Shown here in pieces: positions 6,722 to 64,000 of a stretch of 64,000 nucleotides of DNA. The notes below the pieces were generated by a model. It made no database searches and had not been told where the DNA came from. It saw nothing but the letters and a program-made list of their open reading frames with translations. Origin of the DNA: Nitrososphaerota archaeon (GTDB taxonomy: Archaea; Thermoproteota; Nitrososphaeria; Nitrososphaerales; Nitrosopumilaceae); NCBI GenBank assembly GCA_028867755.1, contig JAGWFT010000002.1, positions 208,018 to 272,017 of the forward strand, written 5' to 3'. The number at the start of each line of letters is the position of its first letter. The first letter of the stretch is position 1. Both the position numbers and the translations under genes were made by a program.

Positions 6722-7570
6722 TTATTTTCTCGATTGTGTTGCGTAGTCTATCATCAAGGCTGGTATATCTACGCCAGTAACCCTTACGGTATTTTTGTAT
6801 TCCGTTGTGTTGTTAACCTCGTGAACTACCAGGCCATTTTCCTTGCTTTCCATTAGATCAACGCCTACTATCTGCCCTTGTACAGCATTTTTTGCCTTTA
6901 TGCAAATGTCTTCGAGTTCCTTTGTCACTTTCATGGGCTCTGCCTTGCCGCCTAGCGCCATGTTTGTCTTCCACTGTCCCTCACCAGAATAGCGGTATAT
7001 TGCAGCAACAACCTTGTCGCCTATCATTATTGCTCTAATGTCGCGGGGAGGTCTGTTGACAAATTCTTCGAGATAATACACTTGATAAATTGGATACATT
7101 GATTCCCGTGTCTCCATTATTCCTTGTGCAGAATCACGGTCATTTAGCAGTGCTATCATCCTTCCCCAGCTTCCAACAGTTGGTTTTAGAACCATCGGGT
7201 ATCCCCTTTTTTCTAAAAGTTCTAGTGCAGCTTCTTCAGAGAATGCGACTGCACTAAATGGAGTTGGGATACCGTTCTTTACTAATAACATGTGGGTGAA
7301 GAGCTTGTTTCCAGCAAATATGCTGGTGTTAAGTCCATTGATGACATTGACTCCTTTTCCTTCAAGTGCTGCTGTAGAATGAAGACTGCGATAATAGCTT
7401 ACACATCTTTGTATGGCAGTACCATACTCTTCTTTGCTTTTGTCCAAATTGATGAATAAACTCTTGCAATCAACCATCTTTGCTTCGACGCCCTTTTTCC
7501 TTGCGGCATCGAACAGAGCTTTTTCTTCCCACCTGATGGTATCGTAGAGTATCGATAGAACCGAGCTCAC
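6722..7570 (-). CDS. lysX: Alpha-aminoadipate--LysW ligase (RimK-family ATP-grasp)
   Basis: KPTVGSWGR, RDIR, WKTNMALG, HEVN; downstream of homocitrate synthase and lysW; GTG start overlaps the lysW stop. Confidence 0.88.
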   Translation of the reverse strand: MSSVLSILYDTIRWEEKALFDAARKKGVEAKMVDCKSLFINLDKSKEEYGTAIQRCVSYYRSLHSTAALEGKGVNVINGLNTSIFAGNKLFTHMLLVKNGIPTPFSAVAFSEEAALELLEKRGYPMVLKPTVGSWGRMIALLNDRDSAQGIMETRESMYPIYQVYYLEEFVNRPPRDIRAIMIGDKVVAAIYRYSGEGQWKTNMALGGKAEPMKVTKELEDICIKAKNAVQGQIVGVDLMESKENGLVVHEVNNTTEYKNTVRVTGVDIPALMIDYATQSRK

Positions 7571-7731
7571 TGGCCCCAGTCCTCACCAACAGTTTGTGCT
7601 GGTTTTAACTCAAAGCCTGAGGATCCTTTGGATAACTCAAAACTTGCACCACAGTCTGGGCAAGTCACAATCTCTCCCTCCATCGAATCTTTTGGGGGGT
7701 TGATATTGGCATCACATTCTGGACATTTCAT
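7567..7731 (-). CDS. lysW: LysW-family amino-group carrier protein, copy 2 (ends EDWGQ); 54 aa, below the ORF-track cutoff
   Basis: Manual translation MKCPECDANINPPKDSMEGEIVTCPDCGASFELSKGSSGFELKPAQTVGEDWGQ; two CxxC motifs. Confidence 0.93.
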   Translation of the reverse strand: MKCPECDANINPPKDSMEGEIVTCPDCGASFELSKGSSGFELKPAQTVGEDWGQ

Positions 7732-7732
7732 A

Positions 7733-8923
7733 TTATTTACCTGTCTTTACCTTAACTTTGGTGTCATTAATTATCTTTCTTTCAAGCCTGTCATCAAGCG
7801 GTATCTCAAGCAGGTCTCCCATCCTTAGGTCCTTGAGGCCTGCTGCCACCTTCTTTGCGTGTTCTTCATCTTGGTCAAGACCTAAAAGCGACATGAGATA
7901 TGCTGCACCATTCTTGCCTGCAAGCTCGCCAAATACTATTTTTCTCCTGTTGCCCACTACCTTTGGTTCAATTGGTTCGTATGCTGCGGGATTTCGAAGA
8001 ATTGCAGCCAAGTGAGTTCCTGCCTTGTGTTTGTATGCGGTTGCACCAACAACTGGCTTGGAGTCATATGGTACAATTCCTGTATATTGCTCAATTAGTC
8101 TTGAGAGGTCCATGAGCATATCAAGCCTGAAATTATTTGGAGATTTGTAAAGATAGGTAAGTGTTACAGCTGTTTCTGCAAGTGCTGGTATCCCGGTCCT
8201 TTCGCCAATACCGTCGATGGTTGTATGTATCTGGTCGGCTCCTGCATCACATCCTGCAAGTGCGTTTGCTAGTGCTAGTCCCATGTCATTGTGGCAGTGC
8301 ACGTCAAGTGGAGTCTTGATTTTCTCGCGAACTGTCTTTACAAGATTGTACATGCCGTTAGGTCTCATTATTCCAACAGTATCAGGTATGCTGATTCTGT
8401 CAACACCTGCATCTGAGATCTCTTTGCAAACCTTGAGGAGAAACTCTGGATCAGCCCTGCTTCCGTCTTCCACTGTAAATCGCATCTTAAACCCATGTGA
8501 CTTGGCATACTCGACTGTCTCGACTGCCCTTTGCAATGCCTCTTCTCTTGTAATTCTAAGCTTGTCTTTCATGTGTATGTCTGAGATTCCAAGATATGTT
8601 GCCATCCACGTGGCATCACACTCTAGTGCAATATCTACATCTTCTTTGAGGGCACGCACGTGAGCTACAATGTCTGCCTTGAGTCCTTGCTTGATTATTG
8701 TCTTGGTGGCCTCTTTGTGATCTGGCGATATTACAGGTGAAATCTCAATTTGGTCAACTCCAAAATAATCAAGCATCCATGCAATCTGGATTCTTTGTTT
8801 GTTAGAAAACGTAACCCCTGGGTGCTGCTCTCCTTCTCGCAGTGTACTATCCAAGATATGGATCTTCTTTGGTTTTTGTCCAATCTCGTTATACTTGTAT
8901 GCGTAATAATTCGGATCGTCCAT
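7733..8923 (-). CDS. Homocitrate synthase (2-isopropylmalate synthase/HCS family)
   Basis: DSTLREGEQ, HCHND.G, GIGERTG; lysine-cluster context favours homocitrate synthase. Confidence 0.85.
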   Translation of the reverse strand: MDDPNYYAYKYNEIGQKPKKIHILDSTLREGEQHPGVTFSNKQRIQIAWMLDYFGVDQIEISPVISPDHKEATKTIIKQGLKADIVAHVRALKEDVDIALECDATWMATYLGISDIHMKDKLRITREEALQRAVETVEYAKSHGFKMRFTVEDGSRADPEFLLKVCKEISDAGVDRISIPDTVGIMRPNGMYNLVKTVREKIKTPLDVHCHNDMGLALANALAGCDAGADQIHTTIDGIGERTGIPALAETAVTLTYLYKSPNNFRLDMLMDLSRLIEQYTGIVPYDSKPVVGATAYKHKAGTHLAAILRNPAAYEPIEPKVVGNRRKIVFGELAGKNGAAYLMSLLGLDQDEEHAKKVAAGLKDLRMGDLLEIPLDDRLERKIINDTKVKVKTGK

Positions 8924-24476: not shown

Positions 24477-25430
24477 TTATTCTATTTGGTCTAATTCCAA
24501 GTCAATTTTTATGCTGGCATCTGGCTCGCTCCAATCAAGAACATTCTCCTTTGGAATCATTCCAAGAGGATCGTACTTGTCAAAACGTGTTTCGCCATCT
24601 ATTGAAGTCAGCAAAACAACCTTTGATCTTTCTCCATTTGCAACAGACAAGCTGACTCGCGTGCTGTCATTGCTAAATATGCCGCTGACTGTACTCACCA
24701 TAGAATTCAAAACACCTATTGGAACTTTGTTACCGCCTACTACATAGAGCAATGCACTCTTGATGCTATTTGGTGGTGCATCCTCGTAAAGCATCTTAAT
24801 CGAATCTCTAAGTGATGTTTCAACATCTGGTATGTCTTTGCTTGTTGACAAGATGTTTGTTTTAGAAGGCAAGGATGAATTTTTCAGAGTGGACACAACA
24901 TGCATCAAAGCACTGTTTGTGATAACATGACAGGCATCAGGAGTAAGATCTGGATTACTGTCAAGTAATGCATCGTTATCAATGATTATTGTACAATCTG
25001 AATTTGCTTTCAGTCTCTTCAATGAAACTCCTGAGAAGAAAATTCTATCCTTTTCGAACTTGAATGGCATTATTCCAAATGAAAGTATGCTCTTTCCTAG
25101 TTCTTTGCCAATCTGGGATACCACCGGGGCTAAAGCAGCGCCAGACTTGCCTGCTAGGTTAGCTACAATCATGATTGTAGAATAGGATTCTAGTCTTTCA
25201 GCAATAGAGTTTCTAACGCCAAGTGAGATGCCTCTGATGAGATATGCTGATGGATTGAGAATAGGACTTGTGTTTATCAAGATCTTGGATGACTCGTGGT
25301 TTAGGTCCTTTGGGTCATGGCTTATTAGAAGACAATCGCATCCAAGTTCTTCCTTTATACTTGTAGCAATTCTGGAACCAGCTCCACCTAATCCAACAAC
25401 TAAGATTGAATCTTGCATCTGAAATTCCAT
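24477..25430 (-). CDS. ftsZ: Divergent thaumarchaeal FtsZ-like protein
   Basis: VVGLGGAGSRIA, PFKFE, IIIDNDALL; signature loop degenerate (LAGKSGAA). Confidence 0.8.
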   Translation of the reverse strand: MEFQMQDSILVVGLGGAGSRIATSIKEELGCDCLLISHDPKDLNHESSKILINTSPILNPSAYLIRGISLGVRNSIAERLESYSTIMIVANLAGKSGAALAPVVSQIGKELGKSILSFGIMPFKFEKDRIFFSGVSLKRLKANSDCTIIIDNDALLDSNPDLTPDACHVITNSALMHVVSTLKNSSLPSKTNILSTSKDIPDVETSLRDSIKMLYEDAPPNSIKSALLYVVGGNKVPIGVLNSMVSTVSGIFSNDSTRVSLSVANGERSKVVLLTSIDGETRFDKYDPLGMIPKENVLDWSEPDASIKIDLELDQIE

Positions 25431-44265: not shown

Positions 44266-45546
44266 ATGGTTGACATAAGCATAGGGTCATTGTTTAGGAC
44301 AGAATGGATTCTTCCAATCTTTCTTGGCATGATCTTCCTTGCTTCGTTACTTGCAAAAAAAGTACGATTGCCATACACCATTATTCTTGTAGGTATAGGA
44401 ATAGCGGTATCTTTTATTCACATATCAGGCTTTGGCATATTTGATACCTCGAAATTTCATGTAGATCCAAAGCTAATTTTGTATTTTATTGTGCCACCTT
44501 TAATCTATGAAGCCATGATGAAAATAGATCGAGAACAATTCAAAACAGTACGAATTTCATCATTACTACTTGCTACGCTTGGCGTGGTGCTTGCAACAAT
44601 AGTTGGGGGATTTCTGCTATCATACGTTGCAGGTTTGCCTATAATTGTCGCATTTGCATTTTCTGCTTTGATTGCACCAACTGATGCTGCAATTGTAATC
44701 CAAGTTTTCAACAAAGTCAAGGTGCCAAGAGCATTAACAATGCTCATGGAATCAGAAGCCAGCTTCAATGATGCTACAGGTCTTGTCATTTTTTCCTCTA
44801 TTATTGCAATAGCTGCAGCTCAAGGGTCTACATTGGGCTCACCGGAGACCATTGGACAGATAAATGTCAATATTCTAGAGCAGATGGGGCATTTTGCTGT
44901 TGTATTTTTTGGTGGAATAGCTGTTGGTCTTGGCTTTGCACTGGGCGCAAGGTTCCTCTTCAGGCTTATGGACGAGCCATTTTCAGAGACTGCTCTTTCT
45001 GTTGCTGTATTGTTTGGTTCTGTAGTTGTTGCAAATGCACTACAACTTTCTGGTCTTGTTGCAGCAGCTGCCTCTGGTCTATATTTTGGCAATCTGGTTA
45101 TGAAAGGAAAAGGAATCATGAGCGAAAAAACACTGATGTACAGTTCTCACTTTTGGGAGATGATTGCCTTTTTTGCAAACTCGGTGGCTTTCTTGTATCT
45201 TGGATTGAGCATGGATATACAAAACATGGGAAGAAATCTGCCTCTCATTGCAATGGCATTTGGTGCAGTGCTAGCCGCACGCGCCGCATCTACATACCCA
45301 ATACTTGCAGCAACTCACAGATTTACCCATGAAAAATGGCCCAGTGCATGGAGACATGTGGTGATGATAGGAGGTATGAGGGGCGCATTGTCTGTTGCAC
45401 TTGTGGCAACTCTTCCAGACAGCAATTTCAAGGATATTTTAGAACCTATAACATTCGGCGTTGTACTCTCGTCTCTGATAGTTCAATACCCACTGCTAAC
45501 AAGATACATCAAAAAAGCATTCCCAGAAAGTGCAGTGTCTCAATAA
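44266..45546 (+). CDS. CPA1-family Na+(K+)/H+ antiporter
   Basis: APTD, ESEASFNDATG, GMRGALS. Confidence 0.93.
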   Translation: MVDISIGSLFRTEWILPIFLGMIFLASLLAKKVRLPYTIILVGIGIAVSFIHISGFGIFDTSKFHVDPKLILYFIVPPLIYEAMMKIDREQFKTVRISSLLLATLGVVLATIVGGFLLSYVAGLPIIVAFAFSALIAPTDAAIVIQVFNKVKVPRALTMLMESEASFNDATGLVIFSSIIAIAAAQGSTLGSPETIGQINVNILEQMGHFAVVFFGGIAVGLGFALGARFLFRLMDEPFSETALSVAVLFGSVVVANALQLSGLVAAAASGLYFGNLVMKGKGIMSEKTLMYSSHFWEMIAFFANSVAFLYLGLSMDIQNMGRNLPLIAMAFGAVLAARAASTYPILAATHRFTHEKWPSAWRHVVMIGGMRGALSVALVATLPDSNFKDILEPITFGVVLSSLIVQYPLLTRYIKKAFPESAVSQ

Positions 45547-45587
45547 ATAATCAAATAATATATCGATACTATTCACATAGTACTAGA

Positions 45588-46400
45588 TTGACACAAAACA
45601 CAAACGAGTCTAATGGAATGGTATTGGAAGGCAAGAGTTATGCCCATCTAGGAAAGCACAAGGATGCTGTATCTTTTTTTGACAAGGCATTAAAGGGAGA
45701 TCCACAAAATATGGATGCGTTATATAACAAAGGGTTATCACTTGTTCAACTAAAGAAAAACAAGGACGCTGTGGCGTGTTTTGAAAAAATACTTGAGAAA
45801 GACCCAAACCATGTGTTGGCTTTGAACAACTTGGGAAACTCGTATGCTGAACAACAACAATTTGAACGTGCGATAGGATTCTACGAAAAGGCATTAAAAG
45901 TAGATCCAAGTTATGTACCAGTTATCTACAACAAAGGTATTGCCGATATAGGAATTGGAAAATACGATGAAGCCCTGCGATGTTTCAATCAAGCTCTATC
46001 TGTTGAACCTGGAAATGTCTCTGCCATGTACTTTAAGGGTCTTGTACTTGGAAAACAGAAAAAACATGATGATGCATTGCTGTGTTTTGACAAGGTAATA
46101 GAAAAAGAACCAGAAAATATCGAAGCGTTGTTTTACAAGGCTACTAGTATTGCAGAGCTTGGAAGACACCAAGATGCAATTATACTATTTGATACAGTCC
46201 TAAAAGATAATCCAAAAAATGGTACAGTGATCTATTCCAAGGCAAGGAGTAAAGCAGAGCTTGGTGAAGACCGTGAGGCCCTTGAATTACTTGCGCAGGC
46301 GATATTGTACTATGGAAAGACAATAAAGGGATGGGCAGTCAAGGACTCGGCATTTAATAGACTAAAAGATGATTTACGATTCAAGGCAGTTGTGAAGTAA
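45588..46400 (+). CDS. TPR-repeat protein
   Basis: About seven tandem 34-aa A.Y.KG..L...A...F..AL..DP units; start at TTG 45588 or ATG 45618 rather than 45336. Confidence 0.9.
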   Translation: MTQNTNESNGMVLEGKSYAHLGKHKDAVSFFDKALKGDPQNMDALYNKGLSLVQLKKNKDAVACFEKILEKDPNHVLALNNLGNSYAEQQQFERAIGFYEKALKVDPSYVPVIYNKGIADIGIGKYDEALRCFNQALSVEPGNVSAMYFKGLVLGKQKKHDDALLCFDKVIEKEPENIEALFYKATSIAELGRHQDAIILFDTVLKDNPKNGTVIYSKARSKAELGEDREALELLAQAILYYGKTIKGWAVKDSAFNRLKDDLRFKAVVK

Positions 46401-46403
46401 TAC

Positions 46404-46700
46404 ATGTCAGAAGAGTTTCTAAAAGATGTGAAAATACTGCTTGTTTCTGGTAAGGGTGATACAGCAAGGTTACGAGAAATAATAGATTTCATAAAACAAA
46501 AACATCCAGTATACATGTCAGATTACAAATATGTTCAAAGCCTAATTTCTGTAGAATCCCAAGAAAACAAGACAGAAACCAAACCCCCCGAGGGAGTAAA
46601 AGTAGACAATCCTGTAGAACTTCTCAGAATAAGACTTGCAGAAGGGAAAATAACAATCGATGAATTCAGAGAGCTAAAAAAAGCTATAACTGAAATCTAG
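46404..46700 (+). CDS. Small protein with a C-terminal SHOCT-like domain
   Basis: LRIRLAEGKITIDEFRELKKAI; 3 nt after the TPR stop. Confidence 0.75.
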   Translation: MSEEFLKDVKILLVSGKGDTARLREIIDFIKQKHPVYMSDYKYVQSLISVESQENKTETKPPEGVKVDNPVELLRIRLAEGKITIDEFRELKKAITEI

Positions 46701-46879: not shown

Positions 46880-48274
46880 TTGTCCAATCTTAATGCTCCT
46901 CTACCACCAGCGCCGGTTCTAATGACCTGTTTTGGCCATTGTGGGATAGGTCTAGGTGCAGAGGCATACAGACGATTGTTAATTGATGTAGGAGCTGATC
47001 CTCTCAAGCCTACGCTAAAAGGAGAGAAGGAGGAGTCACGAGTTTTGAAAAGATACGGCAGTACAATTTTGAGATTTCCAAATTCTTATGGAGGAAACGA
47101 TATACCACTAATTCCAAGAGCATTATTGGTTGATTTAGACCCACGAGCCGCTAATTTGATACTCCAATCATATCCTGATCTGTTTGCACTAAGAGACAAA
47201 CATGTAATTCATGGATCTGGAGGAGCTGCAAGAAACTGGGCAGAAGGAAGAAGCAGATTCATCAATGAAGTAACTAAAAAGTTTGACTTGCAAAAACAAT
47301 TGTCAGGGTTGTCACCTGAACCAGTGAGAGGTTTTACGATACCATTTGCAATGGGTGGGGGTACTGGAAGCTCCTTTGCCAGTGCATTTATGCAATACAT
47401 CAAGAAAGATACCAAAGAGCATGCAACAATAGCATCGTTTGGGCTGTTGCCCGAATTTGGCTGGGATCCAGTTATCTTTGAAGCTGCAGCAATTAATATA
47501 GTCATGAATCTTGAGCACCAGATAAAATATAGTGACTGTTCTATTCTGTTTTCAAACAAGAAGCTAAGAGAGCTTGCCCACAGGCATGAGAAAAAGATTG
47601 AGAAGATACAGTCCATCATTGATGATCTTCCAAAGGAGCATGAGATTGGCTGGAAAGACTACAAAGGTATGAACCTGATTGCCGCAAATGCAATATCCAT
47701 GTTTATTGCATCATTTGCAAGAGAGACAGAATGGGACATGTCAAACTATAGGACATGGCTTGCAACAAAGAAACCAAGATTTGCAGTAGCATGGGTAATT
47801 CCAGTAGTTCCAGAAGAAAGGCAGTGGGGAACAGAGCTAATGTCAGGAGGAAAGGGAAACACTATGGAAGCAATTGTAGATAATATTCACAAGAAAGAGG
47901 ATGCAGTGTTGTTTGACATTGATGAAGGCGATGTCAGAGACAAAGGAGGACAGCGTGATTCCTGTGTCGCGCTGGTAAAAATTAAGGGAGAATTTGATGC
48001 AAAGGAAAGAGAGGTCCTAAAGAATCTGATAAAGGACAGATTCCATATTGAAGACTCGAGAATGATATTTGTCAAGATTCCTATACTGGAGACAGAACAA
48101 GCCAATGTCACCATACTTGTAAACACCAAGGCAATTGGACCCAAGATTTTAGAAATTGCAAGTGAAGCAGAATCTTCTTGGGATGGCTATAAAGAAGAAT
48201 ATGGCAAGTGGGGACTTACAACTGAGGAGTTCAAGCAAAGCCTGATGGATGTCGTTCACCAGTTTAGTGCTTAG
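46880..48274 (+). CDS. Tubulin-family GTPase (artubulin-like archaeal tubulin)
   Basis: GHCGIGLG (cf. GQCGNQIG), IPRALLVDLDP (cf. PRAILVDLEP), GAARNWAEG (cf. GAGNNWAKG), MGGGTGSS signature, FSNKKL, Y..MN; 464 aa. Confidence 0.92.
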   Translation: MSNLNAPLPPAPVLMTCFGHCGIGLGAEAYRRLLIDVGADPLKPTLKGEKEESRVLKRYGSTILRFPNSYGGNDIPLIPRALLVDLDPRAANLILQSYPDLFALRDKHVIHGSGGAARNWAEGRSRFINEVTKKFDLQKQLSGLSPEPVRGFTIPFAMGGGTGSSFASAFMQYIKKDTKEHATIASFGLLPEFGWDPVIFEAAAINIVMNLEHQIKYSDCSILFSNKKLRELAHRHEKKIEKIQSIIDDLPKEHEIGWKDYKGMNLIAANAISMFIASFARETEWDMSNYRTWLATKKPRFAVAWVIPVVPEERQWGTELMSGGKGNTMEAIVDNIHKKEDAVLFDIDEGDVRDKGGQRDSCVALVKIKGEFDAKEREVLKNLIKDRFHIEDSRMIFVKIPILETEQANVTILVNTKAIGPKILEIASEAESSWDGYKEEYGKWGLTTEEFKQSLMDVVHQFSA

Positions 48275-48278
48275 AGGC

Positions 48279-48830
48279 ATGGCAGACTTTAATTTCTTGG
48301 AACAGGTTGCAGCGCAAATCAAGAAAAACAGAAAACAACTAACAGATGTTGAAGACGAACTTTCAACAATAAATTTTAGAATCCACGAGATTCCACTGAA
48401 GATCTCAACTGAATCAAATTTTGCAAAGATGATTGGAGAACAATACAACGATGCCACCAAAGATTTGGAGTCTGCCAAGGAGAGACTTGTGAGAGAAAAG
48501 GAAACTCTAACCACAAAGATAAATGAAGACATATCAACATTTATAGCTGAATTTACATCGCAAGAACTTGTAATCCCACTTGAACTAAATCCAAAGATTG
48601 CTGATGGGAATACTGTTTTCAAATACAAAGGTGGTACCACATTTAAGAACATATTTGATATACTAAGCGAACTTTTGGGACTGAGCTCACCCATACTTGT
48701 AAAAGATGTCATGTTTTCTGCGAATGAAATTGTAATCAAGGTAACAGACGAGTATGAGGCAAAGCAGAAATTTCTAAGCAGTATTAATCAAGTACAGAAA
48801 ACGCTCTCAATAAAAAAAAGACAGGACTAG
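48279..48830 (+). CDS. Coiled-coil protein coupled to the tubulin gene
   Basis: ATG at 48279, 4 nt after the tubulin TAG; two long heptad-rich helices followed by an alpha/beta region. Confidence 0.8.
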   Translation: MADFNFLEQVAAQIKKNRKQLTDVEDELSTINFRIHEIPLKISTESNFAKMIGEQYNDATKDLESAKERLVREKETLTTKINEDISTFIAEFTSQELVIPLELNPKIADGNTVFKYKGGTTFKNIFDILSELLGLSSPILVKDVMFSANEIVIKVTDEYEAKQKFLSSINQVQKTLSIKKRQD

Positions 48831-63841: not shown

Positions 63842-64000
63842 AATCCGGTTGATCCTGCCGGACCTGATTGCTATCGGATTGGTACTAAGCCATGCGAGTA
63901 AGTGTAGCAATACACTGCAGACGGCTCAGTAACACGTGGTCAAGCTAACCTATGGACGTGGATAACCTCGGGAAACTGAGAATAAACCGCGATAGATCAT
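63842..64000 (+). rRNA. rrs: 16S rRNA gene, 5' end (runs off the window)
   Basis: AATCCGGTTGATCCTGCCGGA archaeal 5' end, CTAAGCCATGCGAG, GTGTA-GCAA-TACAC hairpin, GATAACCTCGGGAAACTGAG. Confidence 0.97.

Follow-up and report, generated by a model that had tools for sequence, protein, structure and literature searches.

A tubulin-family gene of the artubulin type and its constant neighbor in a Nitrosotalea genome

The stretch of 64,000 nucleotides of contig JAGWFT010000002.1 analyzed here (the window) belongs to a 1.64 Mb, 99.95% complete genome from the same GTDB genus as Candidatus Nitrosotalea devanaterra, and carries a tubulin-family gene followed at once by a gene for a protein of no known family, which we call the partner (Table 1). 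We report that the first of these genes is, with near certainty, an artubulin, and the account that we strongly favor overall is that of an artubulin which would bind guanosine triphosphate (GTP), assemble head to tail into filaments and have the partner as its likeliest adaptor or regulator. Few prokaryotic proteins are like true tubulin from end to end. Artubulins, the tubulin-family GTPases of ammonia-oxidizing Nitrosopumilaceae and two sister families, are of this sort, and discussions of how tubulin originated have drawn on them since 2012. The family was first described in Candidatus Nitrosoarchaeum limnia and koreensis (Yutin and Koonin, 2012; PMC3349469), was extended in 2013 to Candidatus Nitrosotenuis uzonensis, the Nitrosotenuis protein being 79% identical to that of Nitrosoarchaeum (Lebedeva et al., 2013; PMC3835317), and was re-analyzed in 2014, 2023 and 2026 (PMC4202323; PMC9871819; PMC13394414). 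Judged by sequence comparison, the window gene is an ortholog of the published artubulins; it adds a member from another genus to a family known since 2012 and is not a new kind of gene. A preliminary description of this DNA, made from its letters alone, had suggested that it might come from a lineage different from that of the original reports, and this is correct, the genus being Nitrosotalea and not Nitrosoarchaeum. The comparisons below give a sharper and testable picture of the family, in which the GTP-contact motifs are kept, an asparagine is predicted at the position of the catalytic Glu254 of alpha-tubulin, and the universal neighbor is a protein of 183 residues and not Snf7.

Membership in the family rests on close, full-length relatives. 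A search of 5.8 billion proteins returned more than 100 of them at 77-93% identity and a second group at 52-60%, with Nitrosotalea, Nitrosotenuis, Nitrosopumilus, Nitrosopumilaceae and Nitrososphaerales as the named sources. The family is compact: in an exhaustive HMMER search of 1.84 billion cluster representatives, a single other full-length cluster at the 50%-identity level was found (54%), and next came eukaryote-type tubulins, which are about 27% identical (E 1e-17 and weaker) and carry the names beta- or gamma-tubulin where we looked them up. A relative is encoded in 198 GTDB species genomes, and those most similar to the window protein (up to 94%) come from Nitrosotalea or from metagenome-assembled genomes labeled "Thaumarchaeota". 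The copy on the Ca. Nitrosotalea devanaterra chromosome (LN890280) is 85% identical to the window protein, named Nitrosotenuis loci reach 79-81%, and a closed genome from another genus of the family (locus L090) has a copy 78% identical over residues 6-463. At that locus a Snf7 gene (PF03357, E 2e-9) lies upstream of the artubulin, and genes for dCMP deaminase, family-B DNA polymerase and the TATA-binding protein flank it, a gene set that matches the legend of Figure 2B in the 2012 report on Nitrosoarchaeum (PMC3349469). The Nitrosoarchaeum and Nitrosotenuis artubulins are of the same family and length class as the window protein and share its motifs, and a separate thaumarchaeal FtsZ-like gene is present both in those reports and in the window genome; the window gene differs in its host genus and in starting with TTG instead of ATG.

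Database labels obscure this relationship, as orthologs are called "cell division protein FtsZ" at NCBI or "tubulin gamma" at JGI; the former, attached to many copies, is misleading. A 90% cluster has one member ascribed to "Candidatus Bathyarchaeia archaeon", and locus L066 comes under the name of a "Gammaproteobacteria bacterium" assembly; both attributions are probably binning or contamination errors.

Comparison with solved structures places the protein among the tubulins. With the protein alone and with the family profile as query, the top 60 PDB sequence matches were all tubulins, first Asgard tubulins of Heimdall and Loki type (E down to 1.2e-21), then gamma-tubulin, alpha/beta-tubulin and OdinTubulin, and none of these 60 was an FtsZ, CetZ or TubZ. 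Profile alignment with hhalign against 20 eukaryote-type tubulins gave a probability of 99.9 and E 5e-33 over 395 columns. Since this alignment covers residues 11-455, the homology runs through the C-terminal half that Pfam misses: Pfam recognizes PF00091 at residues 16-232 (E 2.8e-17) and no other domain, and an NCBIfam search of the protein gave no meaningful match. The window genome has one artubulin and one FtsZ-like gene, and the artubulin profile aligns with the product of the latter at a probability of 7.8 and E 0.004 over 117 columns.

The fold points the same way. An AlphaFold2 model with 20 family members as input (mean predicted local distance difference test score, pLDDT, 70; predicted template modeling score 0.76) shows a Rossmann-type N-terminal domain, a long core helix (residues 259-285), an intermediate domain and two terminal helices at 419-443 and 448-463, the latter two being the C-terminal helical region that the preliminary description had proposed. 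As it had also said, the acidic tail is absent, the protein ending in ...VVHQFSA. The best 50 Foldseek matches in the PDB were all eukaryotic tubulins (template modeling scores 0.63-0.75 over about 480 columns). In exhaustive structural alignment of the model with VIA-align, scored as Z, the tubulins came highest: OdinTubulin (Z 32.1, 396 residues aligned), BtubA (31.9, 395), Asgard AtubB2 (31.9, 399), yeast beta-tubulin (31.2, 390), gamma-tubulin (30.5, 400) and alpha-tubulin (29.7, 395). CetZ (24.2 and 23.8, with 311 and 316 residues), FtsZ (21.8, 293) and TubZ/PhuZ (15.9-17.6, 263-328), which share with artubulin the GTPase domain of the superfamily (PF00091) and a core fold of two domains, give lower scores and shorter alignments than the tubulins do. 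Only the tubulin alignments run to residue 464, whereas those with CetZ, FtsZ and TubZ end at 417-439, and hhalign pairs the stretch YKEEYGKWGLTTEEF with the matching C-terminal motif of the tubulin profile. In the model, artubulin thus has the two C-terminal surface helices (H11 and H12) that CetZ, FtsZ and TubZ lack, and the predicted fold is of the full-length tubulin type. The assignment to tubulins of the artubulin type, rather than to FtsZ, CetZ or TubZ, had been made before from motifs and is borne out here by sequence matches, profile alignment and fold scores.

Two prokaryotic systems come closest. OdinTubulin and the Asgard tubulins AtubA and AtubB (PDB 7EVG, 9F6T/9F6V, 24RT; PMC13394414) are archaeal, as artubulin is, and are its best sequence matches among solved structures (family-profile E 1e-21 to 1e-13) and its top fold matches, with about 396-399 residues aligned at Z 32, where identity is merely 16-19%. 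Artubulin is a single gene, in contrast to the AtubA/AtubB pair, and differs from the Asgard tubulins in an atypical RETEWDMSN T7 region and an insertion before helix H7. BtubA/BtubB(-BtubC) of Prosthecobacter are likewise prokaryotic proteins of full tubulin fold encoded in a small operon with a non-tubulin partner; there, two tubulin genes stand with a tetratricopeptide repeat (TPR) partner, whereas here one gene stands with a 183-residue hairpin protein.

The gene is an open reading frame (ORF) of the length that the preliminary description had given, and its start codon is settled as far as sequence conservation can settle it. The peptide APLPPAPV directly behind the TTG is kept down to family members of 52-60% identity. 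Of the Nitrosotalea-type loci inspected, 14 have a TTG at the corresponding position and one has an ATG, as do the Nitrosotenuis-type loci; because the peptide is conserved and the start position shared, we take the TTG to be the real start. The codons behind it vary at synonymous sites among loci. All four motifs named in the preliminary description (PRALLVDLDP, GAARNWAEG, GGGTGS and Y..MN) are in the protein, GGGTGS being residues 159-164 (47354-47371).

Table 1. Coordinates of features in the window; residue numbers count from the TTG start codon of the artubulin gene
Feature	Position	Strand	Description or basis
Artubulin gene	46880..48274	+	Open ORF, 464 residues, TTG start; PF00091; family alignment; model; profile comparison
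Artubulin gene layout	46880..48274	+	N-terminal GTPase domain, core helix H7, intermediate domain, two C-terminal helices
PRALLVDLDP, residues 79-88	47114..47143	+	Aligns with tubulin PRA..(I/V)DLEP, strand S2/T2
GAARNWAEG, residues 115-123	47222..47248	+	T3-loop signature; aligns with tubulin GAGNNWA
GGGTGSS, residues 159-165	47354..47374	+	T4 nucleotide-binding signature of the tubulin/FtsZ superfamily
Y261-K-G-M-N265	47660..47674	+	Start of helix H7; aligns with tubulin Y224/N228 (hhalign); Y261 and N265 invariant
RETEWDMSNY, residues 281-290	47720..47749	+	Atypical T7/H8 region; family alignment, hhalign
Partner gene	48279..48830	+	183 residues, no known family; ATG 4 nucleotides after the artubulin stop codon; conserved homologs
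FtsZ-like gene	24477-25430	-	Second PF00091 gene of the genome, thaumarchaeal, 317 residues; marginal likeness to the artubulin profile
98-residue gene	46404-46700	+	Directly upstream of artubulin; weak SHOCT-like C-terminus (Pfam E 0.0027, below cut-off)
TPR-repeat protein gene	45336-46400	+	Two genes upstream of artubulin
Archaeal 16S rRNA gene, 5' end	63842-64000	+	Cut by the window end

The residues expected to hold the nucleotide are those of tubulin. In the hhalign comparison, artubulin GHCGIG corresponds to GQCGNQ of tubulin (T1), GAARNWA to GAGNNWA (T3), GGGTGSS to GGGTGSG (T4) and, at the start of H7, Y261 and N265 to Y224 and N228, which in established structures are the tubulin residues that contact the guanine. 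Invariant across the artubulin family are G19, G22, G115-A116, N119-A121, G159-G163, Y261 and N265, and 9 of the 10 residues of PRALLVDLDP, V84 being the variable one. Since these paired key residues are invariant, nucleotide binding has very probably been kept, and we consider it highly likely that artubulin binds GTP.

The T7 region is less ordinary. Apart from the nearly invariant M287, every residue of RETEWDMSNY is the same throughout the family. The T7 loop falls short of that of tubulins by 2 residues, and about 11 residues inserted ahead of H7 have no tubulin counterpart in the alignment. hhalign pairs E284 with tubulin N249, D286 with D251 and N289 with position 254, a mapping that is provisional because model confidence is low in this region. 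The acidic residue equivalent to the catalytic Glu254 of alpha-tubulin was not found in this alignment, where the invariant N289 occupies its place. Beta-tubulin itself has a lysine at this position, which makes the residue a functional feature and no criterion of membership. A guess by eye that GMNLIAAN was the T7 loop was rejected, as hhalign and the model put that peptide in helix H7 and RETEWDMSN in T7.

Downstream of the artubulin gene stands the partner, a homolog of which is the only universal neighbor, present at every locus where this could be checked. For the neighbors we counted the best 80 artubulin loci in genomes: the partner lies downstream in 79 and the 80th is cut by the contig end, and it also stands at three loci of the divergent 52-60% group and at loci from three more genera. 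Its identity across loci is 26-88%, and its ATG falls 2-15 nucleotides after the artubulin stop codon. Homologs align only from the 11th residue of the listed ORF, so that the listed start at 48249 is probably 10 codons too early. Artubulin and this protein form a two-gene cassette. The preliminary description had spoken of a single-subunit system, which holds in that each genome has one artubulin gene and fails in that a dedicated partner gene is always next to it.

The modeled partner (pLDDT 88.7) begins as a helical hairpin (residues 4-51 and 60-92), continues with a small alpha/beta domain and closes with a C-terminal helix whose end is basic. Pfam gave a sub-threshold coiled-coil match only, a PDB profile search coiled-coil noise only, Foldseek against the PDB no match below E 0.1, and the ESM Atlas a cluster of Nitrososphaerota hypothetical proteins only. 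VIA-align returned generic helical-hairpin matches, with CHMP4B and Snf7 hairpins beside SMC, prefoldin and designed coils, at Z up to 9.6, which is below the meaningful level for helical proteins. Prediction of an artubulin-partner complex from alignments of both gave no answer (score 0.01; mark 0.32) and speaks neither for nor against binding. We put the chance that the partner binds artubulin directly at about even.

The partner should not be confused with the Snf7 gene through which a link to the endosomal sorting complex required for transport (ESCRT)-III was proposed in 2012 (PMC3349469). A reading of the partner as that Snf7 was rejected, with an hhalign probability of 0.4 against the Snf7 of L090. 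At that locus (7395-8015 (-) and neighbors) Snf7, artubulin and the partner follow one another in this order on a single strand; with Snf7 upstream and the partner downstream, the published neighbor and the universal one are two different genes. The artubulin neighborhood of the window genome contains no Snf7 gene, nor any Snf7/CdvB gene nearby such as Nitrosoarchaeum has, and Ca. N. uzonensis was likewise reported to have no Snf7 neighbor (PMC3835317). The two weak PF03357 matches of the window genome are both on another contig (C24); because Snf7-like matches occur only there, the ESCRT-III link is not general, a point that Lebedeva et al. (2013) had made for Nitrosotenuis.

The gene is inherited as a strongly constrained part of the chromosome. 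Its ratio of nonsynonymous to synonymous substitutions is 0.02-0.035 against five close relatives, for which synonymous divergence is near or beyond 1, and it is the best-conserved protein of its neighborhood. Together with the Pfam match, this ratio puts the gene far beyond what chance would give. A recent genomic island, considered as an alternative, is unlikely because the GC content of the gene (0.39) is ordinary for the window.

Its distribution follows lineages and shows no random scatter, since in several genera almost every genome has the gene and in others it is rare or was not found. It occurs in 152 of 399 sampled genomes of the window's family (91 of 245 of high quality): in 57 of 60 from the window's own genus, in 38/41, 11/11, 8/11 and 20/31 from four other genera, and in 5 of 99 and 0 of 45 from two more, the first of which is large. 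The 38/41 genus includes a genome that matches a named Nitrosotenuis record, and the 5/99 genus the contig that encodes a "Nitrosopumilus sp." protein; artubulin turned up rarely or not at all in the marine genera sampled. Some of the genomes counted here are flagged as unpublished, namely G077, G199, G222, G252 and G336 in the window's genus, G259 in the 20/31 genus and G092 in the 11/11 genus; leaving them out gives 52/55, 19/30, 10/10 and, for the family, 145/392, and no other claim depends on them. The preliminary description had spoken of a patchy distribution of the family; presence goes by genus. As a core, constrained gene of Nitrosotalea, Nitrosotenuis and related genera, artubulin is carried by cultured strains. 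In a class-wide sample it was found in three families of one order (75/222, 5/11 and 4/4) and in none of the 17 further families sampled, including one with 0/78. One genome of the same order but another family (G480) has two full-length matches, on contigs C69 and C7, which could reflect a duplication or a mixed bin.

This restriction to three families is what one would expect if artubulin were a true but derived tubulin, brought from the eukaryote line or from Asgard archaea into the ancestor of Nitrosopumilaceae and its sister families and then diverging fast, in which case it would say little about how tubulin arose. That the best sequence matches are Asgard tubulins and gamma-tubulin is consistent with such a transfer, and a place inside the eukaryotic and Asgard tubulins is one of the two main outcomes of the latest trees (PMC13394414). 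Ordinary GC content, stable inheritance and near-universal presence in several genera count against it, as do the identity of only about 27% to any tubulin and the trees of Yutin and Koonin (PMC3349469) and Santana-Molina et al. (PMC9871819), which favor a basal position, although none of these is decisive. We regard a transfer as rather unlikely, at roughly one chance in four.

As to function, artubulin would bind GTP and assemble head to tail into homopolymeric protofilaments. To our knowledge every structurally studied relative polymerizes (FtsZ, CetZ, TubZ, PhuZ, BtubAB, OdinTubulin), and by analogy with them artubulin probably forms filaments in vivo. Hydrolysis on assembly would probably be slow, or proceed through E282, E284 or D286 or with the help of another factor, because an invariant asparagine appears to sit where alpha-tubulin has its catalytic Glu254. 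The partner, predicted to be co-transcribed, would be the likeliest adaptor or regulator of the filament, for example an anchor, a bundler or a nucleator. We put forward more tentatively the possibility that the two proteins make up an obligate two-component cytoskeletal system of soil and freshwater ammonia-oxidizing archaea in which the tubulin subunit would be without the canonical catalytic glutamate and the partner would control assembly, anchoring or nucleotide turnover; if true, the two would amount to a minimal system of tubulin plus cofactor that does not depend on the ESCRT-III link.

The same asparagine and the shortened T7 loop would also suit a protein that binds GTP without forming dynamic filaments, be it a stable scaffold, a nucleator or cap like gamma-tubulin, or a GTPase that regulates through the partner, and gamma-tubulins do give the best sequence matches among the eukaryotic tubulin classes. 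D286 (equivalent to D251) and the two invariant glutamates nearby could, however, serve hydrolysis, the T7 alignment on which this argument leans is uncertain, and the polymerizing habit of all the structurally studied relatives known to us speaks for filaments; we hold a role without dynamic filaments to be improbable.

Several points weigh against our reading of artubulin as a filament-forming protein of full tubulin type. Even at E up to 1, Pfam Tubulin_C gives no match in the protein, confidence in the model is middling (pLDDT 70) and AlphaFold2 may lean toward the many tubulins in its training set, and the T7 alignment has its 2-residue gap where model pLDDT is about 55. GTP binding, polymerization and cellular role are deduced, as no artubulin has been studied experimentally (PMC3835317; PMC13394414). 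Trees disagree: monophyly with eukaryotic and Asgard tubulins is supported by two studies (PMC3349469; PMC9871819) and opposed by Findeisen et al. (2014; PMC4202323), who found artubulins grouped with TubZ in all their trees, while the 2026 analysis (PMC13394414) gives them a very long branch and does not settle its position. Our profile and fold comparisons speak against the TubZ-like claim of Findeisen et al. (2014) and agree with Santana-Molina et al. (2023; PMC9871819), who argue against a link to TubZ. The idea of a divergent FtsZ- or TubZ-like paralog arisen within Thaumarchaeota, which those 2014 trees, the long branch and the recognition by Pfam of the shared GTPase domain only would favor, is thus very improbable, given a tubulin-profile match at E 5e-33 over 395 columns where the FtsZ-like protein of the same genome reaches E 0.004 over 117, fold scores that fall from Z 30-32 with tubulins to 22-24 with FtsZ and CetZ and 16-18 with TubZ and PhuZ, C-terminal helices that align to residue 464 with tubulins alone, and the arguments of the 2023 study.

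Two further genes precede artubulin on the same strand (Table 1). The 98-residue gene is kept at its position in 57 of the 80 loci (36-78% identity) and went undetected at most loci of Nitrosotenuis type; it could be a third cassette member restricted to particular lineages. The TPR-repeat protein gene is kept in 49 of the 80, all of Nitrosotalea type, and recalls the TPR protein BtubC of the Prosthecobacter btubAB operon, which may be coincidence. Since its listed ORF overlaps that of a Na+/H+ exchanger by about 210 nucleotides, its true start probably lies later.

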